Part shown: in pieces, positions 9,191-58,242 of the stretch
Layout: each line of letters starts with the position of its first letter
Position numbering within the stretch: the stretch's first letter is position 1
Assembly (NCBI GenBank): GCA_964510095.1
Contig: CAZEAE010000002.1
Coordinates: 22,639 to 86,638, forward strand
Length of the DNA: 64,000 bases
Direction of reading: 5' to 3'
Source: an uncultured Elusimicrobia bacterium
GTDB taxonomy: Bacteria > Elusimicrobiota > Elusimicrobia > UBA1565 > UBA9628
The notes under the pieces: model-generated
Seen by the model: only the letters and a program-made list of their open reading frames with translations
What the model was told of the DNA's origin: nothing
Databases searched by the model: none
Made by a program: the position numbers and the translations under genes

Positions 9191-10765
9191 TCATGAAGGA
9201 GGAACCAGCTTTATGAGCTTATCGGTCGCCATGTCGTATTGATACAGATCCTCATAGCTGTAGGATCGGCGGACCGTGCTCCCGAACCGCTCGATGACGC
9301 CGGCGCGCTCGCCGGTCATCCAGGGCGTTTGAAGATTGATGGTCATGCCTTTGCGTCCGGTTTTGAGCTTGAGGGCTGAATCGAACCCCCATGGTTCATC
9401 CAAGAAAAACATGTCCGCGCCGTAGAAGCTCGGCTGGTTCCAAAGGACCAGGAGCGTGGCCGAGCCCGGCAGCTCGGCGGTCCTGCGGCTTATCCTTTCG
9501 ACACCCTCCATCTGAGCCTTCCACGCATCCCCCCAGTGCCGCGCCATGGTCCAGTTCGTCGCGGTGAATACACCCACGGTCATGGCCAGCAAGGCCCCTT
9601 GGACCGAGCCGGAACCTTTGAGGCCCATCGGCGCGGAGATGCGCCGGGAGACCTCTAAGATCGCGGCGGCCAGCAGCAGCCCCGCGCTTAAGCCCGCGCC
9701 CCCATTGACGCGGCCCGCCAGGCCTAAAATCTTCACGCCGTAGCCCCCGAGGGCATAGGGGACATAGGCCGCCAAGAACCCCAACACGCCCATCCAAAGG
9801 ATCACCACAAGCGAGCCATGGGCTGCCGCCTCTCGATGTTTCAAGGCAGTCTTCCGCGTTGGAGCAACGGCGGGTTCCGCCGCCATCAAGAACCTGGCGA
9901 CGGCGATGGTGAACACCGCCCAAAGAATGAGCCCCGCTGGGGTCGACTCTTTGAGCGACCATGCCGATGCATCGGCGCAGACCCGCAGCATCCCCAAGGT
10001 CAGGCAATCCAACCCGTCTCCCATCACTTTCAACATGAGAGGGACAGAAAGCGCCAGGGTCTTTGGATTTTCATACCCCATGACCAGTTGCATCCCTTTC
10101 TTCGCCCAAAATAGGACGATGAGCAAGACGACGCCGAAGGGCGCCAGGCTCCCGAGGGCTTCGCGCGCTGAAGCGCGGAGCGTTCGGCCGGCGACCCGCG
10201 CGTTGGCCAGCACGGCCGCACCCGACATCAGCGGCAGCAGGACACCGGCTTCGTAGCACAATGCGCCTGCTAGATAGGCGGTCATGCTGGCGGCCAGGCC
10301 GGCGCGCTTGCCGGTCTCGAGCCATCCCCAATGAAGCACCATGCTCAGAAGGATCAAAGCCTGGGCCGCGGGCTGGGCAATATTGGTCACCCAGTGATGC
10401 GTGGCGGCATGGACGGGATAAATCAGGGCTAGGCAGGCGGCCAGCAATGCGAAGGCCTCGTTCTTTAGGACTTTTTTAAGGAAAATATAAAAAAGGACTC
10501 CGCCGGCCGCATCGAAAGCCGGCAAGGCAAGATGATAGAGAAGCGGTTTTTCTCCCGCCAGATGGTGGAGCAAGGCGAAAATGGGGATCGACGCGGGGCG
10601 GGCGCCATAATTCGAGCGTGCCACCGCAAGCACGGTGTTCCAAAGGCCCGGATGTTTCCCTAGATCCTCCAGCAAGACCCAATCATCATGATAAAAGCCG
10701 AGTCTTGATGAAAAGATCCCGAACGAGATGACCTCGAGGGCGATGATGACGACGATGGGGCGCAA
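9191..10765 (-). CDS. Polytopic membrane protein of unknown function (possible GT-C-like glycosyltransferase); TTG start
   Basis: 524 aa, very hydrophobic with at least 10 predicted TM helices. Lies between tgt and the protease. No confidently recognised motif. Confidence 0.4.
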   Translation of the reverse strand: MRPIVVIIALEVISFGIFSSRLGFYHDDWVLLEDLGKHPGLWNTVLAVARSNYGARPASIPIFALLHHLAGEKPLLYHLALPAFDAAGGVLFYIFLKKVLKNEAFALLAACLALIYPVHAATHHWVTNIAQPAAQALILLSMVLHWGWLETGKRAGLAASMTAYLAGALCYEAGVLLPLMSGAAVLANARVAGRTLRASAREALGSLAPFGVVLLIVLFWAKKGMQLVMGYENPKTLALSVPLMLKVMGDGLDCLTLGMLRVCADASAWSLKESTPAGLILWAVFTIAVARFLMAAEPAVAPTRKTALKHREAAAHGSLVVILWMGVLGFLAAYVPYALGGYGVKILGLAGRVNGGAGLSAGLLLAAAILEVSRRISAPMGLKGSGSVQGALLAMTVGVFTATNWTMARHWGDAWKAQMEGVERISRRTAELPGSATLLVLWNQPSFYGADMFFLDEPWGFDSALKLKTGRKGMTINLQTPWMTGERAGVIERFGSTVRRSYSYEDLYQYDMATDKLIKLVPPS

Positions 10766-10771
10766 ATGGGT

Positions 10772-11824
10772 CTATCGGACCGCGACGGTCTCGGCGCTCG
10801 CCGAGACAAGCAGGGCCCGGATCGTAGCCGCGGCATCGGCGCTCAGAGAACCGGAGGACAGGGCGGCCTTCAGGCCGTCTCGGATGCTGGCCGCAGGCAC
10901 GGTATAAGAAAGCTCGGTCCAGATCTCGGGGCTGTTGAGGCGCTGCATCTCGGTCAAATACGCGGAGCTCGACACCTTGGGCGATTTGGGGATGCGCCCC
11001 GTCCAGACGATGCCCACCACGTCGCCGGTGTTGCGGTCCACGAAGGCCGAGCCCGAATCCCCGTGGGACACCTCGCAGCCGCTGGCGAAGGACCACACCT
11101 TGTCCGGGCCCGGGTTGAAGTCGTCGGGGTCGGCCATCTTGCGGAACTCGTTGCGCTTGGAGAAAACGCGGCAGTCGGAATCCTGGTTGGCCATCATGAC
11201 CCCTCGAGGGTTGTTGGCGACGCCAAAACCGATGGTCAGCAGCTCTTGCCCCGGATAGATCTCGGCGTCGTAGGCGAAATTCCGGCCGAGCCCCGCCAGG
11301 ACGGCCGCGTCCGCGGCGCCGACGCGTATGGCGAAGACCGCCAGGTCGATCTCCTTCCAATCGCCGTAGACCTTTTCGCACGGGAAGCTCTTGCCCAGCA
11401 GGACGAAATCGGCGCGGACGCCGCAGCCCATCGCCCGCATCACATGGTGGTTGGTGGCCATCATATGGTGGCCGTTGAAGATCCCCAGGTAAAAAGCCGT
11501 GCCGCCGCCGTAATTGGCGGTGGCTTTGGCCGCGCGCTGGAAAACCGCGCTCTCGCGGCCCAAAGAGCCCGCCGTCACCGGCTTCTTGCCCCATTCATCG
11601 CCCAGCTGATAGTCCTTGTTGAGGAAGCCCGCGGCCGTGCCCATGTTCGAGATGCTGGTGTGCCTCAGGTGGACCGTCGGCGCGGGAACGGGAACGGCTG
11701 TGAGCGCGACCGGGGCGGGCTGGACGCGCGCCTGCTGGAGGAATGCTTCTAGGGAAGGCAGGGGTTCCGCCGAGACCAGCAGAGGAGCGCCGCACAGTGT
11801 CAGGACCGCCAGGAATTTGTTCAT
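10772..11824 (-). CDS. Secreted trypsin-like serine protease (S1 family)
   Basis: Signal peptide. Catalytic triad context: H in GHHMMATNHHV, D in KEIDLAVF, S in GDSGSAF. Confidence 0.75.
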   Translation of the reverse strand: MNKFLAVLTLCGAPLLVSAEPLPSLEAFLQQARVQPAPVALTAVPVPAPTVHLRHTSISNMGTAAGFLNKDYQLGDEWGKKPVTAGSLGRESAVFQRAAKATANYGGGTAFYLGIFNGHHMMATNHHVMRAMGCGVRADFVLLGKSFPCEKVYGDWKEIDLAVFAIRVGAADAAVLAGLGRNFAYDAEIYPGQELLTIGFGVANNPRGVMMANQDSDCRVFSKRNEFRKMADPDDFNPGPDKVWSFASGCEVSHGDSGSAFVDRNTGDVVGIVWTGRIPKSPKVSSSAYLTEMQRLNSPEIWTELSYTVPAASIRDGLKAALSSGSLSADAAATIRALLVSASAETVAVR

Positions 11825-11881
11825 GCTCTCAGGATAGCGGCATTCAGGGACGGCTCCCAGGGTCGAAAGGTGGAACGCGGC

Positions 11882-11899
11882 CTAGGTCTAAAGACCTAG
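11882..11899. promoter_or_regulatory. Perfect palindrome CTAGGTCT-AA-AGACCTAG in the divergent promoter region between the protease and vapB
   Basis: 8-bp inverted arms, followed by an AT-rich stretch (aataataatgtgatgattatag) 90 bp upstream of vapB. Candidate operator for antitoxin autoregulation. Confidence 0.25.
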
Positions 11900-11991
11900 A
11901 ATAATAATGTGATGATTATAGATCCGCAACTTGGTCCCTGGGACCTCCTGGGTCTTGTGGTGCAGGCGTTTTTTGAATACACTGTAGGCAT

Positions 11992-12246
11992 ATGAAGAAG
12001 GCATATAGGCAGTACACTATCAGGAGCGTGCCCGCGGCCCTCGACGCTGTGCTGCGCGAGAAGGCAAGGCGCCAGCGCAAGAGCCTCAATCAGGTGGCCT
12101 TGGAGGCTCTCTCCGGAGGAGCCGGAGTCCTGGCTGAGACCCGTTATAGCGATCTCGACGGCTTCTTCGGCTCCTGGATCTCGGACAAGGCGGTGGATCA
12201 GGCGCTCGAGGACCAGCGGCGGATCGACGAAGGGATCTGGTCTTGA
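11992..12246 (+). CDS. vapB: Type II antitoxin, VapB/ribbon-helix-helix-like
   Basis: 84 aa. Basic N-terminal region (RSVPAALDAVLREKARRQRKSLNQVALEAL) typical of RHH/Arc-type antitoxins. 4-nt overlap with the PIN toxin gene. Confidence 0.7.
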   Translation: MKKAYRQYTIRSVPAALDAVLREKARRQRKSLNQVALEALSGGAGVLAETRYSDLDGFFGSWISDKAVDQALEDQRRIDEGIWS

Positions 12247-12626
12247 GGGTCGCGCTCGACACCAACGCCTACCGTGCCGCCGCCGAGGGGGACGCCAAGA
12301 CCGTAGAGGTGCTCCAACGCGCGGAAGAGGTGCGTCTTCCGTTCGTCGCCTTAGGCGAGTTGCGCGCCGGTTTCGCCGCCGGGACGCAGGGCCGCAAGAA
12401 CGAGGCCCGGCTCACGGAGTTCCTCAATACTCCGCGCGTCAGCATCCTCTATGCTGACGAGCAGACGACGCATCATTACGCGTCGCTCTTCGCGGAGTTG
12501 CGGCGTCAGGGGACGCCTATCCCGACCAACGATCTCTGGATCGCCGCGCTGGTGGTCCAGCATGACCTGCTTCTGCTCACCGGCGACGCTCACTTCTCGA
12601 AGATCTCTCGGATCGTCCGCCTATAG
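12243..12626 (+). CDS. vapC: PIN-domain toxin VapC (TTG start overlapping the vapB stop)
   Basis: 127 aa. PIN acidic residues (ALDTNAY..., ...LLTGDAHF). Confidence 0.8.
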   Translation: MRVALDTNAYRAAAEGDAKTVEVLQRAEEVRLPFVALGELRAGFAAGTQGRKNEARLTEFLNTPRVSILYADEQTTHHYASLFAELRRQGTPIPTNDLWIAALVVQHDLLLLTGDAHFSKISRIVRL

Positions 12627-13460
12627 GCTGAGCGCGCCCCAAGCGATCCTGAGATGGATCGAGGAGTTCTCCAGGGTCTCGTGCAGCAGCTGGAACTTGG
12701 ACGCCCGGCAGCCCGTCTTCCACTTCCCGTCCTCGAAGGCCAAGGTCGGCTCCTCCAGCCAGATCGCGCGCCCGGCGGGGAAACCTCGGGCGGCCAGGCG
12801 CCTCAGGCGGTCGGCGTTGGGCTCGAGCTCGGCGGGCAGGATGATGCCCCGTCGCCGGCTCCACTTGACCATGAAGGTCAGCCCGCGCAGCTCGTCGTAC
12901 TCGTAGAAGCGCGGGAAGAACGGGCTCAGCCAATCCTCGTTGAGCACCTTGCCCTTGGCGCTGCAGACCAGCTTGTGCTTGAGCAGGTAGTCCGCCCCCT
13001 TGTCGAGGAACGTCTCTTCTTCAGGGCTCAGGTCCTTGGCGCCGATCATCGCTTCCATCGGCGGCAGCGTGGAGACGATCGAGCTCTTGGCTGATCCTGA
13101 GTAGGCGCCATCGGCGCAATTGAGCCCGCCGTCAGGCAGCTGGTATTTGAGGAACCACGGCCGCACCCAAGGAAGCTCCTTGTCGACGTCCACGCCGTAG
13201 GCCTGCAGGACCTGGTACATCGTGCCCCAGCCGCAGTGGCACATGATCTCCCGGTAAGGGTCGGTCGTCTCCGGGGCGGGGTCCTCCGAGGGCAGGAAAA
13301 AGCGCCGGTAATGGCCTTGGATGTCGGCCACCATCTTCTTGACGGTGGGCTCAGGGATCTCTTTGACGCGGCCTAGCTCCCATAACAGGGTCATATGCCA
13401 CCACGGCGAGTCCCACTTCGGCCAATAAGGGTCGGTGTCTTTCACGAGTTGCGCTTTCAT
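12621..13460 (-). CDS. Hypothetical Trp-rich protein, translationally coupled to queA
   Basis: 279-aa ORF whose ATG overlaps the queA stop (ATGA). W-rich motifs (WPKWDSPWWHMTLLWELG) and CHCGWG. No family recognised. Confidence 0.6.
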   Translation of the reverse strand: MKAQLVKDTDPYWPKWDSPWWHMTLLWELGRVKEIPEPTVKKMVADIQGHYRRFFLPSEDPAPETTDPYREIMCHCGWGTMYQVLQAYGVDVDKELPWVRPWFLKYQLPDGGLNCADGAYSGSAKSSIVSTLPPMEAMIGAKDLSPEEETFLDKGADYLLKHKLVCSAKGKVLNEDWLSPFFPRFYEYDELRGLTFMVKWSRRRGIILPAELEPNADRLRRLAARGFPAGRAIWLEEPTLAFEDGKWKTGCRASKFQLLHETLENSSIHLRIAWGALSL

Positions 13461-14491
13461 AAAATCAGCATCGCGTCGCCGTAAGAATAGAGGCGGTAGC
13501 GCTCTTTGATCGCTTCAGCGTAGGCGGCCAGCAATTTCTCTCGGCCCAGAAATGCGCTGGCCAGCAGCAGCGGCGTCGAGCGCGGCAGATGAAAGTTGGT
13601 GATCAAAGACGAAGCGGCCAAAAACTCGAAGCCCGGCGTAATGTAGAGCTCCGTCCAGCCTTCCCCGGGGCCGAAGCCCTCCGGGCGGCGTGCCAGCGTC
13701 TCCAGCGTGCGGGTGCTCGTCGTGCCTACCGACACCACCCGCCTGCCGGCCTTTTTCGCGGCGGCGATGGCCTCAGCCGGACCCGCAGGTAGACTATACC
13801 ATTCCGGGAGCATGATATGAAGGGCTGCGTCATTGGCCTGGATAGGTCGGAATGTGCCGCGCCCCACGTGCAGAGTCGCTTCCGCGGTGATCACGCCCTT
13901 GGCGCGCAGCTCTGTCAGGAGCCTTTCGGTGAAGTGCAGGCCGGCCGTCGGCGCCGCGATCGATCCGGTGTCCTGGGCGTAGACCGTCTGGTAGCGTTGG
14001 GCGTCAGGCGTGGCGTCCGGCTGGGCCTTCTTTTTTTTGAGGATGTAGGGCGGCAGCGGCGGCAAGCCGTGTTTTTCCAAGTAGGCCCTGATGTCGGGCC
14101 GATCAAAAGTCAGCTCATATTCCCCATCGGCGTTGGTGGTCTCGACGGTCGCATGCAGCCCGCCTTCGAACTCCAGCTTCATGCCCGCCCGGAAGCCCGA
14201 GGCCAGCGCGCACCAGCGGCCCGGCTCAAGCTCCTTGACCAGCAGCAAGTCCGCCTTGCCGCCCGTGCTTTTCTTGCCGTGCAGCCGGCAGGAGAACACC
14301 TTCGTGCGGTTGAGGACGACGCAGTCGCCCGGGGCCAGATATTCCGGCAGGTCGCGGAAATTCCGGTGGGCCCAGGCGCCCGTGCCGCGGCGCACGACCA
14401 AGAGGCGCGAGGCGTCGCGCGGCTCGGCCGGCACCGAGGCGATCAGTTCCTCGGGATACTCGAAGTCGAAGTCGGATGCGGGCAGCTTCAC
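13457..14491 (-). CDS. queA: S-adenosylmethionine:tRNA ribosyltransferase-isomerase
   Basis: N-terminus (V/M)KLPASDFDFEYPEELIA matches QueA. GTG start at 14491 overlaps the stop of the upstream methyltransferase (GTGA). The 561-aa track ORF is an artefactual 5' extension. Confidence 0.9.
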   Translation of the reverse strand: MKLPASDFDFEYPEELIASVPAEPRDASRLLVVRRGTGAWAHRNFRDLPEYLAPGDCVVLNRTKVFSCRLHGKKSTGGKADLLLVKELEPGRWCALASGFRAGMKLEFEGGLHATVETTNADGEYELTFDRPDIRAYLEKHGLPPLPPYILKKKKAQPDATPDAQRYQTVYAQDTGSIAAPTAGLHFTERLLTELRAKGVITAEATLHVGRGTFRPIQANDAALHIMLPEWYSLPAGPAEAIAAAKKAGRRVVSVGTTSTRTLETLARRPEGFGPGEGWTELYITPGFEFLAASSLITNFHLPRSTPLLLASAFLGREKLLAAYAEAIKERYRLYSYGDAMLIL

Positions 14492-19313: not shown

Positions 19314-20254
19314 ACGGTGTCAGGCTTTCCGGTATTACCGGTATTACCGGTATTGCATGGAACAAAATCGCACCCTCGATCGTATAAGAGATATGGGGAG
19401 ACCACCAAGAATCCATTTCCCGGGCGCCATCTTCCACCTTATCTCGAGAGGCAACGACAAACAAGACATCTACCTCGATGATGAGGACCGCCGTCGATTT
19501 ATCTCGATCTTGACGATGATGAAGAAACGGCATCCTTTCCAGCTCTATGCATATTGCCTGATGACCAACCATTTTCACCTGCTGGTGGAAGTCGACCGCT
19601 GCGAGGCCAAGGTTTTTATGCACGCAATTCTGACCAGCTACTCACATTACTTCAATGGTCTTCACAATCGGGTCGGCCATCTCTTTCAGGGCCGCTATAC
19701 GTCGCTGCTTTGCCAGAGGGACTCCTACTTGATCAGGCTGATCCAATATATCCACCTCAACCCGGTCGCCGCAGGGATGGTCTCGCATGCCTCCGGTTGG
19801 CCATGGTCGGGACATCATGACTACCTCTCCGAGCGCCCGGGATTGACCGATACATCTTTCCCATTAAGCCTCTTCGGCGCGGATCGCAAGGAGAGTCTAG
19901 ATGCCTACAAGGAGCTTGTTTCGCAGCCGCGCTGCGTGCTTCCCAGCACGCAAGAAATTCAATCGTTCACGCCTGAGCTGTTCGAACCCTTAGGGATGGG
20001 TAAGTCCTTGCAGCTGGTGGCGCTGGAGACAGCTAAAGCCACGGGGATCTCCGAAGGCTTTCTAAGAAGCAACAGTCGGGCGCGATGTTTGACACCCGTA
20101 CGGCGGAGATTTCTGGAACAGGCGCTTAGGGAGGGGTATTCGGCTGCCGAAGTGGGATCGTTTCTCAACCGGTCCCCAGTAGCGATTTCGCGGTTGCTGG
20201 CTCGTCAGGCCTAATTACCGGTAATACCGGTAATACCGGAAAGCCTGACACCGG
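19314..20254 (+). mobile_element. REP-associated tyrosine transposase unit: RAYT gene bracketed by about 40-bp inverted REP arms
   Basis: Left arm acggtgtcaggctttccggtattaccggtattaccggtatt (19314-19354). Right arm is its reverse complement (20213-20254, about 39/41 identical). A further partial copy of the same REP lies at 1815-1877. Confidence 0.7.
19357..20214 (+). CDS. REP-associated tyrosine transposase (RAYT, IS200/IS605 TnpA-like HUH Y1 enzyme)
   Basis: HUH motif in CLMTNHFHLLVEV. Catalytic Tyr context GHLFQGRYTS. Size and architecture of TnpA-REP. Immediately flanked by inverted REPs. Confidence 0.85.
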   Translation: MEQNRTLDRIRDMGRPPRIHFPGAIFHLISRGNDKQDIYLDDEDRRRFISILTMMKKRHPFQLYAYCLMTNHFHLLVEVDRCEAKVFMHAILTSYSHYFNGLHNRVGHLFQGRYTSLLCQRDSYLIRLIQYIHLNPVAAGMVSHASGWPWSGHHDYLSERPGLTDTSFPLSLFGADRKESLDAYKELVSQPRCVLPSTQEIQSFTPELFEPLGMGKSLQLVALETAKATGISEGFLRSNSRARCLTPVRRRFLEQALREGYSAAEVGSFLNRSPVAISRLLARQA

Positions 20255-20276: not shown

Positions 20277-20348
20277 GGGCCCGTAGTTCAAAGGATAGAG
20301 CACGTGGCTTCGAACCACGGGATCCGGGTTCGATTCCTGGCGGGCCCA
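20277..20348 (+). tRNA. tRNA-Arg (anticodon TCG); CCA not encoded
   Basis: Cloverleaf by hand: acceptor GGGCCCG/CGGGCCC, D-arm GTTC-AAAGGATA-GAGC, anticodon stem CGTGG/CCACG with loop CTTCGAA (U33-TCG-A37), T-arm CCGGG-TTCGATT-CCTGG, discriminator A. TAGAAT -10-like hexamer 9 nt upstream. Confidence 0.85.
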
Positions 20349-20399
20349 TGTTTTTGCCGTTTTTTGGCTTAAATATTGAAATATTTCCGTAAAGGGCGG

Positions 20400-21500
20400 A
20401 TGGTACTCTTCGGGGGCATGCTCCTCTTAGCTTCCGTGGTCATGGCCGCGCCGTCCATTCAGGCTCCGGCTGACCCTGCCGCAGCTCTCGGCCGCCGCGC
20501 GCTGGCGTTCTTGGCCGGCAGGGCCGCCGACCCCGATCCCGAGGTGAGGGCCGCCGTGGCCGCTGCCTGGGGGGAGATCGGCAACCCCGCCGCCAAGCCC
20601 TTGCTCGAGAAAGCGGCGGCCGACCGCAACGACTACGTCCGCATCGAAGCCGCCGCCAGCCTCGAGCTGTTGGGGGCCCGGGGCGCGCATGTCTTGGAGG
20701 AGATCGTTTCAAAGTCCTCGGCCACGACGGGCGCGCATCTGTCCCCGGCCGAAGAGATGCGCGTGCTGGCGCATGACAAGGCCCGCGTCGCCGCCATCCG
20801 GAAATTAGCCGGCATGGGCAGCGAGCGTGTCGTGGCGCTCCTGGAGAAGACCCTCGAGGACCGTTCGCCCTCCGTGCGCGACGCCACCGCCGTGGCGCTA
20901 TGCCGGCTCGGCTTCGACGAGTTCTCGTCAAGGTTCCTCGAAGCCCTCTCCGATCCCGACGAGTCGGTCCGCTCCGCCGCCGCCAAGGCCCTTGGCGAGA
21001 TCGCCCTTCCCGCCGCCGCGGAACCCCTGATGCGCATCGCCGGAGAGGATTCCGCGGCCGTGCGCGCCGAGGTCATGCGGTCCTTGGGCGCTCTGGAGGA
21101 CGACATCGTGGTCGACACCCTGGTCAAGGGGGTCCAGGACGACAAAGCGCGCGTCCGGCTCATGGCGGCGGGGGGGCTGGCGCGCCACGCATCCTCTTCG
21201 GCCGCGATGCCCATGCTGCGCCGCCTCGCCAAGGACGAAAAGACCCCCGACCTGGCGCTCAAGGCGATGGAAGGCCTGGCCCGGCGAGGCGAGACCGTGG
21301 GGCTTTCTCTGGCGGAGCGCACGCTATCCGGCCCGGATATCGACGGCCGGATGATCGCCCTCGACGTCATCGCGGCCGTGCGCACCGACGCGGCTTTGGA
21401 ACTGCTCAAGGGCGCGATGGAGCGAGACGCCGCGCCCAGGGTGCGCGTGCAGGCCGCCGCCTTGATCGTCAAACGCCTCCAAAAAGGCGGGGCCCAATGA
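20400..21500 (+). CDS. HEAT-repeat protein with signal peptide (PBS-lyase-type HEAT repeats)
   Basis: Repeated ...DPDPEVRAAAA.ALGEIG.P.A..PL... units. ATG at 20400 gives a signal peptide (the track's TTG at 20376 is an extension). Stop overlaps the protease start (ATGA). Confidence 0.7.
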   Translation: MVLFGGMLLLASVVMAAPSIQAPADPAAALGRRALAFLAGRAADPDPEVRAAVAAAWGEIGNPAAKPLLEKAAADRNDYVRIEAAASLELLGARGAHVLEEIVSKSSATTGAHLSPAEEMRVLAHDKARVAAIRKLAGMGSERVVALLEKTLEDRSPSVRDATAVALCRLGFDEFSSRFLEALSDPDESVRSAAAKALGEIALPAAAEPLMRIAGEDSAAVRAEVMRSLGALEDDIVVDTLVKGVQDDKARVRLMAAGGLARHASSSAAMPMLRRLAKDEKTPDLALKAMEGLARRGETVGLSLAERTLSGPDIDGRMIALDVIAAVRTDAALELLKGAMERDAAPRVRVQAAALIVKRLQKGGAQ

Positions 21501-24500
21501 GGCGCGCGGCCTTCTCCCTGGCCTTCGCCGCGCTGTCCTGCCTGACGGCGGCCCCCGCCCAGGCGATCAAGGCGCCTCCCGGGGCGGCCAAGGACGCCAA
21601 GCGCTTCGCCCGCCAGCCGGCCCTTCAGGTGGGCGCGCCCGCGTCGGCGGTCCGCCGCTTCACTTCCTTCAACCAAAGGCATGGCGGGGGCTGGAAGATC
21701 CGCTTCGACGGGCGGACGGGCGTCGCCTCGGCCCTCGTCGAAGGAAGCGCCCCGGCTCCCCTCGGCCCGCCCGCGCCCGCGGCGCAATCCTTCCTCAACG
21801 AGAACTTCGACCTGCTGGGCATCGATCCCCGCACGCTCGAGGTCGAGCGGCAGAACGAGGTGGACGGGCACAAGCACGTGCTCTTCCGCCAAACATACCG
21901 CGGCCTGCCCGTCGAGTTCGCCCGCGTCAAGGTGCACTTCTCCGGACGCGGCGACGTCCTCGGCGTCAATTCCGATTACCAGCCGGGCCTCGACCTCAGC
22001 GTGACGCCCTCCGTCCCGGAGCAGGCGGCGGCAGACGTCGTGCTGCGCGACAGCGGATTGCCCGTGCTCCCTGACGGCCGGCTGGTCGTCTATCCCGCCG
22101 CGCAAGGCGCCAGGCTCGCTTGGAAGTTCACCGTGCGCGGCAAGCAGGCGCTTTGGCGCTATTACATCGACGCCCAGACCGGCGAACTGCTTTTTCGCTT
22201 CAATGACCTGCGCTTCCAGACGCCGCCCGTCTGCCTCACCTCGGGCACGATCATGGGGATGGTCTACGACGTCGACCCCAGCACGTCGCCCGGACCGGTG
22301 ATGCGCCCCTTCAACAACCAAAAGGTCTACGTGGTCGACGGCTCCACCTTCGCGGTCACCAGCGGCGCGCCCACCTACGGCCAGGGCTTCTTCTGCAGCG
22401 GCACCAAGGGGAAGATCATCACCTCGCTCCAAGGCCCGTTCGTCAACGTCGGAAATTTTCGCGGCCCCAGCGCCCATTATGACAACGGCAACGGCGTCTG
22501 GAGCACGCTGGCGACGCCGATCTCGTCCCCGCATCCGTATCCTAATAACGTCGTCCTGACCTCCACGATCAATATCGCCGCTTCGGCCCCTCTGGCGGTC
22601 AAGGTCCTGCCGGTCTTCAACAACTTCAACGTAGGGCGCTTCGACTCGAGCGTCCAGGACGGCGGCGATGTCACGGACAGCGACCAGGTGGCCGTCCTCG
22701 ACGCCAACGGGAACCCCGTCTCCTTCTATATCGGAAACCGGGGCAGCTTCAACGGCGCCGCCGTCCACGGACAGCTGCTGCGCCTTCGTCTTTCCTCCAA
22801 CGACTCGGGGACGAACTTCGGCTACGACGTCAGCCTGTCGAGCTACCTGACCGTCAGCAACCCCACCGACTACGGCGCCGATGGCTCCAGCTTGACTTGG
22901 AAGCCCGAGAACACCACCGCCGGCCTGCGCGGGGAGATCAACCTCTTCTATCACCTCAACAAGATGCACGACTACTTCGTCTCGGACGTCGATCGCTCGA
23001 GCATCGCGTCGATCAGCAACAAGCCGCTGGTGGCCATGGCCCATGCCGGCCCCGACCTGAACAACGCCTTCTATGACCCCGTCTACGACGGCCTGATGTT
23101 CGGCGACATCTCGAACCTCGTCCCGATCGACGCGCTGACCGACGACGCCACCGTGCCGCGCCACGAGTACACCCACTACGTCGTCGAGAAGATCTGGCCC
23201 ATCCAGAATTTCGGCCAGGCGGGCGCCATCTCGGAAGCCATCGCCGATTATTTCTCGGCCAGCTCCCTGGAACACAGCGCCATCGGGACGTACTACAAGC
23301 AATCCATCGGGCTGGGCGGCGCCCTCCGAGAGCTGGACTGCCAGACGCACCCTCCCTGCAAGTCGCTCAACGGGAACACCGACTGGGAGGGCGAGATCCA
23401 CGAGGACAGCATCTTCCTCAGCCAGGCGCTTTGGGACATCCGGCGCGACCGCATCACCGCGCTGGGCCCGGCCGCGGGGAGGTCTTGCGTGGACAACCTC
23501 TTCTTCCAAAGCCTGTTGTTCTTCCCGGAAAGCTTCACCGAGGTGCTCGATGCTATGAAGCGGGTCGACAGCGCCGGCATCGTGGCCGCTTGCGGCGGGG
23601 CCAACGCGACGCAATCGGTCATCAACGCTAAATTCGCCCTCCATGGCCTTCAACTCGCCAGCGGCGATGCCTTCGAAGGCTCGCGCGGCAACAACGGGTT
23701 CGAGACCGCCGTCGACATCAGCACGTACCCCTCGCTCAACGGCACCGTCTCGCCCGCCGGAGACATGGACTTCTACACCTTCGGCGCGGGAGCGGGCCCG
23801 GTGCAGATCACCCTCACCCTGCCCATCGACGGCCCTTTCCATAAGGTCTACGCGCTGACCCTTTTCGACCGCAACCATAAGCAGGTGGCCTACGCCCAGC
23901 CGCCGCTGGACGGGCAGCATACCCTCTTCGACGGCGCCGCCTGCGACCAGAGCGACTGCCTGACGACGGCCTCCAAGGTGGTCCTGACCTACAACAACCC
24001 CGCCGCCAGCCAGCTCTTCCTGCAGATAGCCGGCGGGCCGGCGGCGGGAGGGTCGAACTCCGGCGTCAACTCCTCCCTCCCCTACCTGTTGGAGACGACC
24101 TACAGCAAGGCCGCGGCGCTCTCCGGCCGCGTCGTTTCCGCGAAGTTCGACAACGACCGCATCAGCTTCGCCGTGAACGTGACGAGCCACCCTCAGATCC
24201 AAGACTACCGCTTCGCCTACGCGCAGCTGCGCGACCATTCGACGAGCATCATGGCCAATACGCTCACGCATGTCCCAGCGCAGGCCGGGGACTTCCTGAC
24301 GATGACCTCCTCGGAGAACGCCTCGGGCAGGATCACGGGCGAGGTCACCCTCGTGCCGGGCTTCGCGGCGCGCTTCCCCGCCGTGGGCACCATCCACGTG
24401 GAGGTCTTCGGCTACAACGTGGCGGGGAGCACCGTCTCGCTGGGTTTGTCCAACCCGCTGAACCTGACCACCACGAAGTCCGAGCTGAAGGCCTTCAACA

Positions 24501-24760
24501 ACATCTTCAACCCCGCCAAAGGCGATAAGACCACGGCCAAATTCGACGTCCAAAGCGGCGGCCGCGTGACGATCAAGCTCTACTCGATGAGCGGGGCCTT
24601 GATCGCGACGCTTTTCGATGGGGAGGTCGAATCCGGCAAAGGCTCGGTGGATTGGTCGGGGCGCAACCTCTCGGGCAGCGTGGTGGCTAGCGGCATCTAT
24701 CTGCTCCGCATGGAAGGCCCGGGCATCTCCAAGACGCAAAAGATCGCCATCGTCAAATGA
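21497..24760 (+). CDS. Secreted thermolysin-like zinc metalloprotease with PPC domain and T9SS-type C-terminal sorting domain
   Basis: Signal peptide MRRAAFSLAFAALSCLTAAPAQA. HEYTHYV (HExxH) plus downstream EAIADYF (ExxxD third zinc ligand) as in M4/M36 gluzincins. PPC-like segment (GDMDFYTF). Last about 90 aa (FNPAKGDKTTAKFDV...VTIKLYSMSGALIATLFDGE...SGIYLLRMEG...KTQKIAIVK) match the Por-secretion-tail/FlgD-Ig-like CTD pattern. Confidence 0.8.
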   Translation: MRRAAFSLAFAALSCLTAAPAQAIKAPPGAAKDAKRFARQPALQVGAPASAVRRFTSFNQRHGGGWKIRFDGRTGVASALVEGSAPAPLGPPAPAAQSFLNENFDLLGIDPRTLEVERQNEVDGHKHVLFRQTYRGLPVEFARVKVHFSGRGDVLGVNSDYQPGLDLSVTPSVPEQAAADVVLRDSGLPVLPDGRLVVYPAAQGARLAWKFTVRGKQALWRYYIDAQTGELLFRFNDLRFQTPPVCLTSGTIMGMVYDVDPSTSPGPVMRPFNNQKVYVVDGSTFAVTSGAPTYGQGFFCSGTKGKIITSLQGPFVNVGNFRGPSAHYDNGNGVWSTLATPISSPHPYPNNVVLTSTINIAASAPLAVKVLPVFNNFNVGRFDSSVQDGGDVTDSDQVAVLDANGNPVSFYIGNRGSFNGAAVHGQLLRLRLSSNDSGTNFGYDVSLSSYLTVSNPTDYGADGSSLTWKPENTTAGLRGEINLFYHLNKMHDYFVSDVDRSSIASISNKPLVAMAHAGPDLNNAFYDPVYDGLMFGDISNLVPIDALTDDATVPRHEYTHYVVEKIWPIQNFGQAGAISEAIADYFSASSLEHSAIGTYYKQSIGLGGALRELDCQTHPPCKSLNGNTDWEGEIHEDSIFLSQALWDIRRDRITALGPAAGRSCVDNLFFQSLLFFPESFTEVLDAMKRVDSAGIVAACGGANATQSVINAKFALHGLQLASGDAFEGSRGNNGFETAVDISTYPSLNGTVSPAGDMDFYTFGAGAGPVQITLTLPIDGPFHKVYALTLFDRNHKQVAYAQPPLDGQHTLFDGAACDQSDCLTTASKVVLTYNNPAASQLFLQIAGGPAAGGSNSGVNSSLPYLLETTYSKAAALSGRVVSAKFDNDRISFAVNVTSHPQIQDYRFAYAQLRDHSTSIMANTLTHVPAQAGDFLTMTSSENASGRITGEVTLVPGFAARFPAVGTIHVEVFGYNVAGSTVSLGLSNPLNLTTTKSELKAFNNIFNPAKGDKTTAKFDVQSGGRVTIKLYSMSGALIATLFDGEVESGKGSVDWSGRNLSGSVVASGIYLLRMEGPGISKTQKIAIVK

Positions 24761-25908
24761 GGCTCCCTTCGCTCGCCGCCTTCCTGCTTTGCCTCGCGGC
24801 GCCCGCCGCCGCGGGCGACGCCGGCGTCACCGGCGCGCCGGTCCTGCAGATGCCGATGGGAGCGCGCGCCTTGGGCATGGGGGGGGCCTTCGCCGCCGTC
24901 GGCACCGATGCTTCGGCCTTGTTCTATAATCCCGCCGGCTTGGCGCGCCTCAACGCGCACGAGGTCGGATTCTCCTTCATCAGCGGCCTCGACGACAACA
25001 ATCTCCAGCAGATCGCCTACGGCGGCCCGATCGCCTTCACCGGCATCTCCGGCAACGGCTACGCCAGCGTGGGCTCCAGCCTTTTGTTCTCGCAGAGCGG
25101 CACCCTGGAGTACAACAAGCTCAATGCCGACGGCTCCTTGAACGCGACGGAGCAGGTGAGCGCCGGCTCGGATTTCGTGGGCAGCCTGGCCTACGGCGAG
25201 CGGGTAGGCGCCACCTCCCTCGACTTGCGCGACGGCAGCTACAGCATCAACCATTTCGTCGGCGTCTCGGGAAAATTCCTGCGGTCCACGCTCGTCGAAC
25301 AGTACGCCGCCTCCACCTTCGCCGCCGACATCGGCTACCTCATCCACTCGCCCGAGGCCGGCCTGAGCGGGGCATTCTCCGTGGCCAACCTCGGCAAGGG
25401 GCTCAAGTACGTCGATGAAACGGACCCGCTCCCGTTGACCCTTCGCCTCGGGACCGCTTACCAGGGAGGGGTCCCGTCGGTGCACACCTACACCGTGGCC
25501 ATGGACGGGGATTACGTCCTCTACGACAAGCAGTGGCACGTCAACACAGGCGTCGAGTATTTTTGGCAGAAGAACTACGGCTTCCGGCTGGGGTATCAGT
25601 TCCACCGCGACAACATGGGGCTGACGATGGGCTTCGGCACGCGGTGGCGCGGCCGCGTCCTGTTCGATTATGCGCTGGTCTTCGCCGATTCGCTGAGCAA
25701 CTCCCACCGGGTCACGCTTTCCTATCGCTTCGGCGGCGTGACTCCCACCGTCAGAGGACGGGAGCGGCGACCGTTCATCGAGAGCGTGCCCGAGCGCGAG
25801 CAGCTGAGGAACCAGGAAGAGGACAAGCCCGTCATCGAGATGCCGCCCGCGCGGCCGCGGGCCGTGCCGCGAGAGCGCTCCAACGGCGTCCCCGGGTGGA
25901 TCTACTGA
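24757..25908 (+). CDS. Outer-membrane beta-barrel of the FadL/OMPP1 superfamily, PorV-like
   Basis: Signal peptide. N-terminal signature GARALGMGGAFAAVGTDASALFYNPAGLA (FadL/PorV-type hatch motif). Alternating beta-strand pattern with C-terminal aromatic. ATGA overlap with the CTD-bearing protease gene. Confidence 0.65.
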   Translation: MRLPSLAAFLLCLAAPAAAGDAGVTGAPVLQMPMGARALGMGGAFAAVGTDASALFYNPAGLARLNAHEVGFSFISGLDDNNLQQIAYGGPIAFTGISGNGYASVGSSLLFSQSGTLEYNKLNADGSLNATEQVSAGSDFVGSLAYGERVGATSLDLRDGSYSINHFVGVSGKFLRSTLVEQYAASTFAADIGYLIHSPEAGLSGAFSVANLGKGLKYVDETDPLPLTLRLGTAYQGGVPSVHTYTVAMDGDYVLYDKQWHVNTGVEYFWQKNYGFRLGYQFHRDNMGLTMGFGTRWRGRVLFDYALVFADSLSNSHRVTLSYRFGGVTPTVRGRERRPFIESVPEREQLRNQEEDKPVIEMPPARPRAVPRERSNGVPGWIY

Positions 25909-27383
25909 TGTTCGAAACAGCCGAGCTCGATGAGAAGGTGTCGAAGGCCGACTACAGGCGCCTGGAGCCTGAGCTGCGCTCGGAGCTCGTCGCCGCCCAA
26001 AAAGCCTTAGCGGCCTCGCCGCTCTCCTTGGTCGTCTTGATCGGCGGCGTCGAGGGCGCAGGCAAGACCGAGTTCGCCAACCGTCTGCTCGGCTGGCTCG
26101 ACGCGCGCGGCATCGAGGTCTACGCCGGCGAGGGTCCCACCGAGGATGAGCGCGCCCGGCCTGCGTTCTGGCGATTCTGGCGGCTCTTGCCGCCGAAGGG
26201 CAAGTGCGCGGTGCTGCTCACATCATGGTACACGACCCCGATCATCGACCGGGTCTTCAAACGCACCAAGCGCGGCCGCTTCGATCGCGAGCTGGCGCGC
26301 ATCACCGCCTTCGAAAAGATGCTCTCCAGCGAAGGGGTCGTGGTCGTCAAGCTCTGGATGCACTTGTCCGAAAAAAACCAAAAGCGCCGCTTCAAGGAGC
26401 TGGAGGCCGACCCGGACACCTCTTGGAGGGTCACCGCCCGGGACTGGCGGTTCCACGGCCGTTACGACCGCTTCCGCCAGGTCTGCGAGCAGGCCCTCAT
26501 GCAGACGAACCCCGCCAACGCGCCCTGGCACATCATCGGCGCCGCCGACCGCCGCTTCCGAGACCTCACCGGAGCGCGCCTGGTCTTGGAAGCCTTGCGC
26601 GCACGGCTTCACGGGATATCCGCCGCCAAGCCGGGTCGCGACGGGCAGCCGCGGGCCACCCACAACGGCAAGGACCTCATCGGCGCGCTCGACTTGACGC
26701 TGCGGCTGCCCGATGACGCGTACAAGGATCTCCTTGAGACCCTGCAGGGCCGCCTTGGCCGGCTGACCCGGAAACTCCGCGAAAGGGGCCGCTCGCTCAC
26801 GTTGGTCTTCGAGGGGACCGACGCGGCCGGCAAGGGCGGGGCGATAAGGCGCCTGACCGAGGCGATGGACGCGCGCCTCTACCGCGTCCAATCCGTGGCC
26901 GCGCCCACCGACGAGGAGCGGGCCCATCCCTACCTTTGGCGGTTCTGGCGCCACCTCCCGGGCGCCGGCCGCGCGACGATCTTCGATCGCTCCTGGTACG
27001 GGCGAGTGCTCGTGGAACGCGTGGAGGGCTTCGCCAGCCCTGAGGAGTGGCAGCGCGCCTACGGCGAGATCAACGCCTTCGAGGAACAGCTCGGAGAGGC
27101 GGGGAACATCGTGCTCAAGTTCTGGCTGGCGATCAGCCCTCAGGAGCAGCTCAAGCGTTTCAAGGACCGCGAAGTGACGCCTTATAAGCAATATAAGATC
27201 ACCCCGGACGACTGGCGCAACCGCAAGAAGTGGACCGCCTACAGGAAGGCGGCCTGCGAGATGATCGAACTCACGGGCCTGGAGCGCGCGCCCTGGACCC
27301 TGATCGAAGCCGAAGACAAGAATTGGGCGCGCATCAAGATCCTGGAGACGGTGGTCGCCGCGCTGCGCCGCGAGCTTCGTTGA
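25908..27383 (+). CDS. ppk2: Two-domain polyphosphate kinase 2 (PPK2, polyphosphate:AMP/nucleotide phosphotransferase type)
   Basis: 491 aa with two PPK2 repeats, each with a Walker A (GVEGAGKT / GTDAAGKGG) and lid motifs (WYTTPI / SWYGRVL). ATG overlaps the upstream stop (TGATG). Confidence 0.9.
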   Translation: MFETAELDEKVSKADYRRLEPELRSELVAAQKALAASPLSLVVLIGGVEGAGKTEFANRLLGWLDARGIEVYAGEGPTEDERARPAFWRFWRLLPPKGKCAVLLTSWYTTPIIDRVFKRTKRGRFDRELARITAFEKMLSSEGVVVVKLWMHLSEKNQKRRFKELEADPDTSWRVTARDWRFHGRYDRFRQVCEQALMQTNPANAPWHIIGAADRRFRDLTGARLVLEALRARLHGISAAKPGRDGQPRATHNGKDLIGALDLTLRLPDDAYKDLLETLQGRLGRLTRKLRERGRSLTLVFEGTDAAGKGGAIRRLTEAMDARLYRVQSVAAPTDEERAHPYLWRFWRHLPGAGRATIFDRSWYGRVLVERVEGFASPEEWQRAYGEINAFEEQLGEAGNIVLKFWLAISPQEQLKRFKDREVTPYKQYKITPDDWRNRKKWTAYRKAACEMIELTGLERAPWTLIEAEDKNWARIKILETVVAALRRELR

Positions 27384-27420: not shown

Positions 27421-27448
27421 TTGACAAAACGCGCCATCCGCTTATACT
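27421..27448 (+). promoter_or_regulatory. Sigma70-like promoter (TTGACA-16 nt-TATACT) positioned for a leaderless ABC-transporter transcript
   Basis: The -10 hexamer ends 6 nt before the GTG start at 27455. No SD sequence. Confidence 0.4.
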
Positions 27449-35898: not shown

Positions 35899-37712
35899 TA
35901 GGCGCGGCCCTCTTTCTTCAGCGTGGCCAAGGAATCCCTCGCCGCGGCCTTGATCTCCTTGTCGCGCCCGGTGATGATCTCATACCAGGTGCGCCGGGCC
36001 GTAGCCTTGAGGAAGGCCAGCGAGGCGTTGGTGGGGAAGCGGCCTAGGGCGGTGACGATGGAGACCTTGACCTCCTCGTGCGGCGTCGCTCCGAAAGCCC
36101 CGATGAGCATCTCGTCTAGCCCCGGGTGGTTGAGCAGCGACAGCGCGATGATGGCCGGGGTCGTCTCCTCGGGCGCGCCGGAGACGATATAGGCGATCAG
36201 GCCGACGATGGCCTTCGGCCCTCCGGTCTTGCCGAGTATCTTGGCTGCGGCCTCCCTGACTTTGTGGTGAGAGTGCCCTATCAAAGGGACCAGCGCATCC
36301 AGATTCTCCTCGCCGCCGATGTCGGCTAGGACGGCGATGACGTTCACGATGATGAACCAGTCCTCGTGGCCCAAAGCCGCCCTGAGGGCTTTGGTACCGA
36401 AGCGCCGTCCCAGCGCCGCCAACAACGCGCAGAGCTTGGCGCGGTGGCTCTTGTCCTGGACCTTCTGCATCTCGCCCAGCAGCATGGGCATGACCCCTTC
36501 GCCGAGGAATACGAGGAATTCCGCGACCTTGGCGAAGGCGTCAGAATCCTTCTCCAAGGCGGCTAGATGCGCGACGATGCGTTCGGCCACGGCGGGGGAG
36601 GCGATCTTCTCTTCGATGAGCTTGCGCAGGAGGGGCAGGAAGGCGGTGAGCCTGGCATCCCTCGCCATGAGCGTCCAGCGCTCATGTTCCTTCATGAGCG
36701 ACTCGATCTGCCCGTCGCGCCCCAGCTCCATCAGCAGCCGGCCATAAGCCTCGATGACGTACTTCGGCTTGCGATCGTCTTCGGGCGCCGCCAGCATCGC
36801 CTGCGCTTTGGCCAGCGACCACAGCATGGCGGCGTTCTTCTCATGCGTCTGATGCACGCCCAGGCTGTCGCGGTCGGCCTTGAGCATGACCCCGGCCCAG
36901 GAGACCACGGTCGGGCGGTCCCAGCCCGGACGGCCCTTCGCGGCGGTGCGCGGGCGCCCCTGCCATCGCGGCGGCCGCCGGACCAGCGCGGAAAACTCCT
37001 CAAAGCGCGCCCGGATCCGGGGATCGTAGCAGGACCAGGGCATGGCCGCCTCGAATTCCTCCAGGGGGAGCTCGCGGTTGCGGCAGCTGTCGAGGAGCTC
37101 GGTGACCTCTTCAGCCTCCTTGCCCTGAAGCCCCTCGTTCTGCTGGAAGAGCAGGCCCAGGAAGTCCGGCAAGGTCTTGGCGCGGGCGAAGGCCTCCACT
37201 TGCGCCTCGCTGAGCTGCCCCGGCATCTCATGCTTCTCCTCTTGCTCGCCGGTGACGACGAAATTGAGGATGAAGGTCATCTGCAGGCCGTCGATGCGGA
37301 CCTCCTGGACGCTCTTCTGGATATCGCTGAGGGTCGTCTTCTCATCGGGCTTGGCGACCAGGATCTTCAGGAACTCGACCATGCCCTCCTTGGTCAAGCG
37401 ATTGGTCAAAAGGAGCTGGCCGATGCCGAGCGTGTGCAGCGCGACGGCGAAAGCCGTCACATCGGGGCTGTCGGTCAGCTCGACCTCGTCGACCGTGATG
37501 ATCTTGGCTTTGACGTCCAAGACGAGCGTCGTCTCCTGCCCCAGCGTCTTAAGAAGCACCTGGGTCACCCTTTCGGCCAGCTGGAGGATGATGGGATGGC
37601 CTGCCTTATAAAGCGAGGTGGTCTTGGCGCTCGTCGCCAAAGAGCCGATCAAGACCTCCACCGAGGCCAGTTTTTGCCGCGAGGCCTGCTGTTCCGCCGT
37701 GTGCTCCGCCAC
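35898..37712 (-). CDS. HEAT-repeat protein
   Basis: 604 aa. C-terminal PBS-lyase-type HEAT repeats (GHEDWFIIVNVIAVLADIGGEEN..., HSHHKVREAAAKILGKTGGPKA...). Confidence 0.7.
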   Translation of the reverse strand: MAEHTAEQQASRQKLASVEVLIGSLATSAKTTSLYKAGHPIILQLAERVTQVLLKTLGQETTLVLDVKAKIITVDEVELTDSPDVTAFAVALHTLGIGQLLLTNRLTKEGMVEFLKILVAKPDEKTTLSDIQKSVQEVRIDGLQMTFILNFVVTGEQEEKHEMPGQLSEAQVEAFARAKTLPDFLGLLFQQNEGLQGKEAEEVTELLDSCRNRELPLEEFEAAMPWSCYDPRIRARFEEFSALVRRPPRWQGRPRTAAKGRPGWDRPTVVSWAGVMLKADRDSLGVHQTHEKNAAMLWSLAKAQAMLAAPEDDRKPKYVIEAYGRLLMELGRDGQIESLMKEHERWTLMARDARLTAFLPLLRKLIEEKIASPAVAERIVAHLAALEKDSDAFAKVAEFLVFLGEGVMPMLLGEMQKVQDKSHRAKLCALLAALGRRFGTKALRAALGHEDWFIIVNVIAVLADIGGEENLDALVPLIGHSHHKVREAAAKILGKTGGPKAIVGLIAYIVSGAPEETTPAIIALSLLNHPGLDEMLIGAFGATPHEEVKVSIVTALGRFPTNASLAFLKATARRTWYEIITGRDKEIKAAARDSLATLKKEGRA

Positions 37713-37794
37713 GTTCGAAGTGTAACAAGGACTTCAGGATTTTACAAGACCTCACGATAACCGAATAACCGAGGGCCTGGCACCGATTTAAATA

Positions 37795-48149: not shown

Positions 48150-48282
48150 AGTGTAGTCCTTAAGGTCCTAGAGCGTCAGTGTCCTAAGGCCCAGAGGACC
48201 ATAGGTCCAAGGGCCTAGGAGGCAGGATTAGTATAACCGGAAAGGCGGGAAATGCAAGCGGGCCGGCGGCGCGAGCGAGAAG

Positions 48283-51208: not shown

Positions 51209-51214
51209 TCCGCG

Positions 51215-58240: not shown

Positions 58241-58242
58241 TC

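Follow-up and report, generated by a model that had tools for sequence, protein, structure and literature searches.

An M4-like protease with a type IX-like sorting domain and its neighboring PorV/PorQ-family barrel in Elusimicrobiota: a candidate cognate cargo-carrier module

A groundwater bacterium of the Elusimicrobiota (Hainich groundwater metagenome) encodes, immediately next to each other, a secreted protease that ends with a domain similar to the sorting domains of type IX secretion system (T9SS) cargo, and a beta-barrel protein of the outer membrane (OMP) from the PorV/PorQ family, which raises the question of whether the two form a dedicated pair of cargo and carrier. Both genes are located in a 64,000-nt stretch of contig CAZEAE010000002.1, which is called the window here. 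The protease is a 1087-aa M4-like zinc metalloprotease (21497..24760, + strand) with matches to the Pfam families FTP and Peptidase_M4, and its final 100 residues are the C-terminal sorting domain (CTD; 24458..24757, + strand), identified in scans with TIGR04183 and FlgD_ig. The 383-aa OMP (24757..25908, + strand) was assigned to its family with the model NF033709. The stop codon of the protease gene (24758–24760) overlaps the ATG codon of the OMP gene, which begins at position 24757, in the sequence ATGA.

Relatives of this locus were collected by scanning one genome per GTDB species with an alignment of the OMP, which found 451 relatives, of which the best 80 were kept. The close homologs of the OMP and of the protease were all from metagenome-assembled genomes (MAGs) of Elusimicrobia/Elusimicrobiota, and, with near-identical strains excluded, their identity was 40–65% for the OMP and 45–59% for the protease. 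In every orthologous locus with upstream DNA, a protease ortholog was located directly 5′ of the OMP gene and ended within ~50 nt of its start. The relative L004 (59% identity) has the gene for a HEAT-repeat protein, the protease gene and the OMP gene in the same order and with the same four-base overlaps as the window, and lacks the PPK2 gene that follows the OMP gene in the window. The proposal made in an earlier note on this DNA, that the protease and the barrel are a dedicated pair, is thus strongly supported by conservation.

The adjacency of CTDs and barrels also extends far beyond these orthologs and far beyond chance. A CTD profile, which was built by iteration on six-frame open reading frames (ORFs) of PorV-family loci, found 89 domains, and all of them end at most 3 residues from the stop codon. 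The count was made for the 80 PorV-family genes from species-representative genomes that have at least 300 bp of upstream DNA. For 63 of them a CTD-terminated ORF on the same strand had its stop codon within −150 to +400 nt of the barrel start; given how densely non-adjacent CTD ORFs occur over the same 1.17 Mb, 0.9 such cases were expected. The 63 pairs consist of 30 orthologs of the window pair and 33 pairs of distant family members (24–34% identity), which are from Elusimicrobiota, FCPU426, Omnitrophota, Desantisbacteria, WOR-3, KSB1, Coatesbacteria, and Ignavibacteria. Endomicrobiales also contain members of the family (L075). The passengers of the distant pairs are mutually unrelated, as they include Amidase_6, an NHL propeller with CarboxypepD_reg, BNR, fn3, and PMP repeats, and their lengths range from 215 to more than 3300 aa. 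The order is reversed in four Calditrichota loci (L041, L054, L056, and L062; ~10000–14100), where the barrel is followed by the CTD protein. In these loci the CTD protein after the barrel is ~950 aa long (that of L041 has tandem-95 repeats), and a further CTD protein is encoded 1.5–2.9 kb upstream.

Two or three CTD-barrel pairs were found in single MAGs, and in two cases two pairs shared one locus, either back to back (L060, 170–8598) or ~3 kb apart (L077, 1281–10927). The presence of two pairs in each of these loci suggests that the CTD-barrel module multiplies by duplication as a unit. Four further CTD proteins are encoded in L077, which is from Melioribacteraceae. The distances between CTDs were correlated with the distances between their barrels (Mantel r 0.90 for 32 distant pairs), to which shared descent contributes, and the nearest CTD and the nearest barrel coincided in 18 of the 32. 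The identity to the window CTD was 43–67% for the CTDs of the orthologs and 15–38% for those of other pairs. As judged from these sequence comparisons, the type of the CTD tracks the type of the barrel, and not the genome.

The CTD of the window protease contains the motifs NNIFNP and WxGxNxxG...SGIY and the terminal sequence KTQKIAIVK-COOH, and it reaches to the final residue of a protein bearing a Sec signal. A Lys close to the C-terminus is invariant among the protease orthologs; in the structure of the translocon with bound substrate, a conserved Lys of the CTD contacts PorV (PMC10994853). Its assignment as a T9SS-type tail, which had been suggested earlier, held in part. On TIGR04183, the model of the T9SS type A sorting domain, the full-length protein scored 22.9 (cut-off 23), and the score rose above the cut-off, to 29.1, when the 100-aa domain was scanned in isolation. 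FlgD_ig scored above its threshold of 27 both in the full-length protein (27.4) and with the isolated 100 residues (32.1), while PF18962 stayed under 27 in both cases (19.1 and 23.3, respectively). The fold of the CTD is a compact seven-strand Ig-like beta-sandwich, and its best structural match is a PorU chain. Three protease orthologs have already been named "T9SS type A sorting domain-containing protein" by NCBI. When the 95-aa CTD alone was searched against a collection of 5.8 billion proteins, there were only 2 matches, which were uninformative, and a phmmer search found no further CTD proteins in the 64-kb window. Among 87 distinct CTDs, TIGR04183 matched 73, the PorZ C-terminus 71, FlgD_ig 60, the PorU C-terminus 27, CHU_C 24, and TIGR04131 only one.

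The OMP consists of a signal peptide (residues 1–19), an N-terminal hatch (~23–66) and a barrel (~67–328). The hatch contains the sequences GARALGMGG and FYNPAGL, in agreement with the FadL/PorV N-terminal signature described for it before. The NCBIfam model NF033709 ("PorV/PorQ family protein") matched residues 25–325 with 140.1 bits against a cut-off of 90, and many OMP homologs carry this name at NCBI. The scores on the equivalog models were well below their cut-offs, which were 220 for PorQ (NF033711; 64.2 bits) and 250 for PorV (NF033710; 58.8 bits), and hence the expected match to PorV was borne out at the level of the family but not of the equivalog. The same was true for nine distant barrels, all of which passed NF033709 (155–200 bits) and none the PorV or PorQ equivalogs. 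The matches of the OMP to the Pfam models UPF0164 (21.3) and PorV (17.5) were sub-threshold. The protein is an outer-membrane barrel of the FadL fold, and its best structural match is PorV.

After the last barrel strand, SYRFGGV, the OMP continues with a 55-residue tail of low confidence in the predicted structure (predicted local distance difference test, pLDDT, below 50), which was delimited from the alignment and pLDDT as residues 328–383 (25738..25905, + strand). The tail starts with the basic sequence RGRERRPFIE, conserved as RGRxRRPFIE, which is followed by an acidic stretch and PRPRAVPRER, and ends with PGWIY-COOH, where G380, W381, and Y383 were invariant in the ortholog alignment. Only the orthologs paired with the protease have this tail; its ending varies in a few loci, it is truncated in L015, and distant PorV-family members lack it. 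The tail is probably disordered and periplasmic, and its possible partners are the HEAT-repeat protein, a PDZ protease, or peptidoglycan. Other C-terminal extensions are present on distant PorV-family barrels, including those of L040, L044, L047, L067, L042, and L052. In the L040 barrel from Omnitrophota (9962–11371) an OmpA-like peptidoglycan-binding domain follows the barrel, as confirmed with NCBIfam. TPR-like tails are present on the barrels of L044 (9926–11272), L047 (9977–11347), L050, L053, and L084, an SH3-like tail on that of L067 (806–2230), and extensions of 320–420 aa on those of L042 (9869–11845) and L052 (1602–3497).

The protease is composed of a signal peptide (residues 1–23), an FTP/PepSY-type propeptide region (~121–232), the catalytic region, middle domains, for which no family match was obtained, and the CTD. 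In Pfam the FTP family scored 37.7 (threshold 21) and Peptidase_M4 (PF01447) 26.6 (gathering threshold 22.4), and PepSY was below its threshold of 24 (21.9). The family of the M4 C-terminal domain, the helical catalytic subdomain (PF02868), was not among the Pfam matches of the protease listed at E ≤ 0.1. The best PDB sequence match was the neutral protease of B. cereus (1npc), whose motifs HELTH and GALNEAISD align with HEYTH (residues 556–560; nt 23162–23176) and GAISEAIAD (residues 576–584) of the window protein; thermolysin-like enzymes bind zinc through these motifs. The HExxH sequence was kept in all 118 full-length protease orthologs. This conservation, together with the alignment to 1npc, suggests that the protease is probably active, and by its sequence the protein is best described as a divergent, much enlarged M4-like protein. 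Sec-type signal peptides were read by eye on the HEAT-repeat protein, the protease, and the OMP, with the predicted cleavage sites APSIQA|PAD, AAPAQA|IKA, and APAAA|GDA, respectively.

The gene order of the window pair resembles that of PorU and PorV in P. gingivalis (PG0026–PG0027), which are encoded by adjacent genes (PMC5445135), and where the CTD of PorU stays uncleaved and tethers PorU to PorV (PMC10202324, PMC5445135). In both cases a secreted peptidase with a type A-like CTD is encoded immediately 5′ of a PorV-family barrel of the FadL fold. However, the window peptidase is an M4-like zinc enzyme, while PorU is a C25-type cysteine sortase, and the window barrel fails the PorV equivalog, has the PGWIY tail, and belongs to an Elusimicrobiota host. 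A HEAT-repeat gene is usually attached to the pair, and no PorZ, PorQ, or SprA partners are known for it.

Two other known arrangements share features with the window pair. PorU and PorZ keep their CTDs, which are not cleaved and hold them on PorV and PorQ; the genes of type B substrates adjoin those of their cognate PorP/SprF carriers, which then anchor the substrates (PMC10202324, PMC12618676). As in the PorQ–PorZ system, a PorV-family barrel would here retain the uncleaved CTD of one specific partner; moreover, the OMP and all nine distant relatives tested scored higher on the PorQ than on the PorV model, and most of the distinct CTDs match the PorZ C-terminus. On the other hand, the PorQ equivalog cut-off is not reached, and the passenger is a protease rather than the beta-propeller lipopolysaccharide carrier PorZ. 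In P. gingivalis, porQ and porZ are not known to be neighbors. The SprB–SprF type B system of F. johnsoniae is similar in that each substrate has its own PorV-like barrel, with clustered genes, and the carrier anchors it at the surface. It differs from the window-type pairs in that their CTDs are type A/FlgD-Ig-like, as recognized by TIGR04183 and, in all but one case, not by the type B model TIGR04131, and in that their barrels are of the PorV/PorQ and not the PorP/SprF family. In F. johnsoniae a single PorV shuttle recognizes all type A CTDs (PMC12618676), and the use of one PorV is likewise described for the type A CTDs of Bacteroidota. In contrast to described T9SSs, the type A-like CTDs are here paired one-to-one with carriers, and the hosts include phyla outside the Fibrobacterota–Chlorobiota–Bacteroidota (FCB) group.

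Because the window pair fits the carrier and anchor logic of the PorU/PorZ and PorP/SprF systems, we propose, with moderate confidence, that it forms a T9SS-type module of cognate cargo and carrier, with the protease displayed at the cell surface by a barrel that holds its CTD. The HEAT-repeat protein, the protease, and the OMP would each be exported by Sec, and the PorV/PorQ-family barrel would insert into the outer membrane. The overlap of stop and start codons may favor production of both partners from one transcript. The Ig-like CTD of the protease would dock on the extracellular loops of the barrel, as type A CTDs do on PorV, and would not be cleaved off but remain in place, like the CTDs of PorU and PorZ on PorV and PorQ. 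Since the uncleaved CTD would remain docked, the active M4-like protease would be displayed on the surface, tethered to its own barrel. The passenger might cross the outer membrane through an undetected SprA-type translocon encoded elsewhere in the genome, or by some other route, for example type II secretion with subsequent capture. PPK2 is probably a bystander. More speculatively, the periplasmic HEAT-repeat protein could hold the protease while it is unfolded, or act as an adaptor for it, or do the same for the PGWIY tail of the barrel.

This proposal was weighed against other explanations of the pair. It is unlikely that the pair belongs to an ordinary T9SS, in which the full SprA/PorKLMN/PorU/PorZ machinery would be encoded elsewhere, the OMP would be the general PorV shuttle for type A CTDs, and the protease would be a chance neighbor, cleaved by PorU and then released or linked to lipopolysaccharide. 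Even though the CTD and the barrel fall in the T9SS type A CTD and PorV/PorQ families, and the core machinery could lie beyond the 64 kb of the genome that were inspected, the low score on the PorV equivalog, the presence of several family members per MAG, each beside its own CTD gene, and the tracking of barrel type by CTD type argue against a general shuttle. Additionally, no NCBIfam model of the T9SS core (SprA/Sov, PorK/L/M/N, PorU, and PorZ) matched among the ~34 ORFs scanned in the window, T9SS genes are absent outside FCB phyla according to a review (PMC11285876), and the literature searches on Elusimicrobia with T9SS or type IX returned incidental co-mentions only, with no link between the two. 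We consider it quite unlikely that the barrel, possibly with the beta-barrel assembly machinery, exports its partner by itself in the manner of a split autotransporter or a two-partner system, without SprA. The one-to-one, translationally coupled pairing in phyla without a described T9SS would be consistent with such self-contained secretion, and barrels of the FadL fold have an opening in their lateral wall. However, the lumen of the barrel is plugged by the N-terminal hatch and is too narrow to let a folded passenger of 100 kDa through, and those PorV, PorQ, and PorP proteins that are known act as carriers rather than as translocons (PMC10994853).

The conserved, single-copy, and syntenic character of the protease could also be explained if the pair were a non-homologous analogue of the PorU–PorV attachment complex, in which the protease would process the other CTD proteins of the cell while its own uncleaved CTD keeps it attached to the main PorV-like barrel. 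This is very unlikely, as the separate barrels that accompany the other CTD proteins speak against a processing step common to them, enzymes of the M4 family usually serve as nutritional endopeptidases, and the C25-type PorU is unrelated to M4. The alternative that the OMP is an importer of hydrophobic compounds of the FadL type, and its adjacency to the protease is meaningless, was rejected as extremely improbable. The OMP has the same barrel fold as FadL/TodX channels and, like them, a hatch at the N-terminus that includes an NPA-containing motif, but its score on the Pfam FadL model (PF03349) was 13.4 against a threshold of 29.7, with a match limited to residues 40–75, while it clearly passed NF033709 and had PorV as its best structural match. 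PorV-family barrels also adjoin CTD proteins, in 63 of 80 cases, rather than genes of lipid or aromatic catabolism.

The pair is part of a series of four abutting + strand genes, for the HEAT-repeat protein, the protease, the OMP, and PPK2, which is bounded by tRNA-Arg(TCG) (20277–20348, + strand), immediately 5′ of the HEAT gene, and by a promoter-like site (27421–27448, + strand). The overlaps were found in the sequence as the earlier note had described them, and the three junction sequences are ATGA, ATGA, and TGATG. The exported HEAT-repeat protein (20376..21500, + strand; HEAT_2 141 bits) is 374 aa long when read from TTG at 20376, and 366 aa in the gene call of the source contig, which starts at ATG 20400; it has a signal peptide and lacks a lipobox. 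Its gene ends at 21500 and overlaps the ATG codon of the protease gene at 21497, so both its export signal and its overlap with the protease gene were as claimed before. Of the 23 orthologous loci from the genome scan that have sufficient upstream DNA, 20 contain a HEAT homolog directly 5′ of the protease, as does L004, and it is missing from this position in L019, L020, and L036. The HEAT gene was therefore rejected as an obligatory member, and is a frequent, non-universal third member of the pair. A second, larger HEAT-repeat protein (35901–37733, − strand; 611 aa, HEAT_2 64 bits) is encoded 8 kb downstream on the opposite strand.

The fourth gene encodes a two-domain PPK2, a polyphosphate:AMP phosphotransferase (25908..27383, + strand; TIGR03708 662.6 bits, cut-off 547.65), and its ATG at 25908 shares one base with the stop codon of the OMP gene (25906–25908). 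The overlap noticed earlier is thus real, and PPK2 is probably co-transcribed with the OMP here, but PPK2 is the 3′ neighbor of the OMP in the window's own strain (L001–L003) only, and not in L004 or L006–L036. For this reason the coupling is probably incidental, and PPK2 was rejected as a member of the module. The promoter-like site, which is near-consensus for sigma-70 (TTGACA, 16 nt, TATACT; 11 of 12 positions), lies just 5′ of a gene for an ABC-transporter ATPase (27455) and likely marks the end of the transcription unit of the four genes. A scan for promoters and terminators within the operon gave nothing above background. Between yebC and the tRNA gene, a lower-GC stretch (0.61) contains a gene for a Y1-type (IS200/RAYT-like) transposase (19357–20214, + strand). 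At the position of this transposase and tRNA gene, L004 has an Omp85-family gene, upstream of its HEAT, protease, and OMP genes. This gene is absent from the window and from all other loci, and was therefore rejected as a part of the system.

Two long ORFs were also noted elsewhere in the window. For an 1832-aa ORF (42672–48167, − strand), neither Pfam nor NCBIfam gave a match at E ≤ 0.01. Its syntenic counterpart in L004 is a 1766-aa protein, also without a recorded Pfam match, and in the window the ORF is preceded by a 556-aa protein with a zinc ribbon and a weak CarboxypepD_reg match. A 2343-aa histidine kinase (51209–58240, + strand) has HisKA and HATPase confined to its last 220 residues and no domain before residue 2100, and its first 600 residues, as read from the translation, are charged, rich in E/K/R/A/Q, and coiled-coil-like. 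The region of this gene coincides with a strong AT skew (0.33–0.37) at 52–58 kb, and the gene is followed by that of a response regulator (58189–59436).

The family assignments of the CTD and the barrel are already present in automated annotation, although no discussion of the PorV/PorQ assignment was found in the literature searched, but a systematic one-to-one CTD-carrier module outside FCB phyla appears to be undescribed. The prevailing view treats T9SS as an invention of Bacteroidota or the FCB group, with one PorV carrier shared by type A CTDs. In the loci described here, CTD and carrier form a modular, one-to-one, translationally coupled gene pair, which can occur several times per genome and is distributed among phyla outside FCB. 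One possible, still tentative, generalization is that Elusimicrobiota and non-FCB phyla such as Omnitrophota, FCPU426, Desantisbacteria, and Coatesbacteria may use a minimal CTD-dependent surface display without SprA or PorKLMN, in which each secreted protein would be equipped with a type A-like CTD and with a PorV-like barrel of its own. This could be either an ancestral module of the T9SS carrier and attachment machinery or an independent pathway of secretion and anchoring, and the protease-barrel pair could possibly be a processing core similar to PorU–PorV. If these lineages lack SprA and PorKLMN, the recognition between carrier and CTD would predate the translocon and the motor, or work without them, which would bear on the evolution of T9SS and on the real role of carrier barrels, and would also yield a simple rule to predict surface-displayed proteins, along with their anchors, in uncultured phyla. 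The 61 natural CTD-barrel pairs are a data set for the specificity determinants that are sought in current work on F. johnsoniae.

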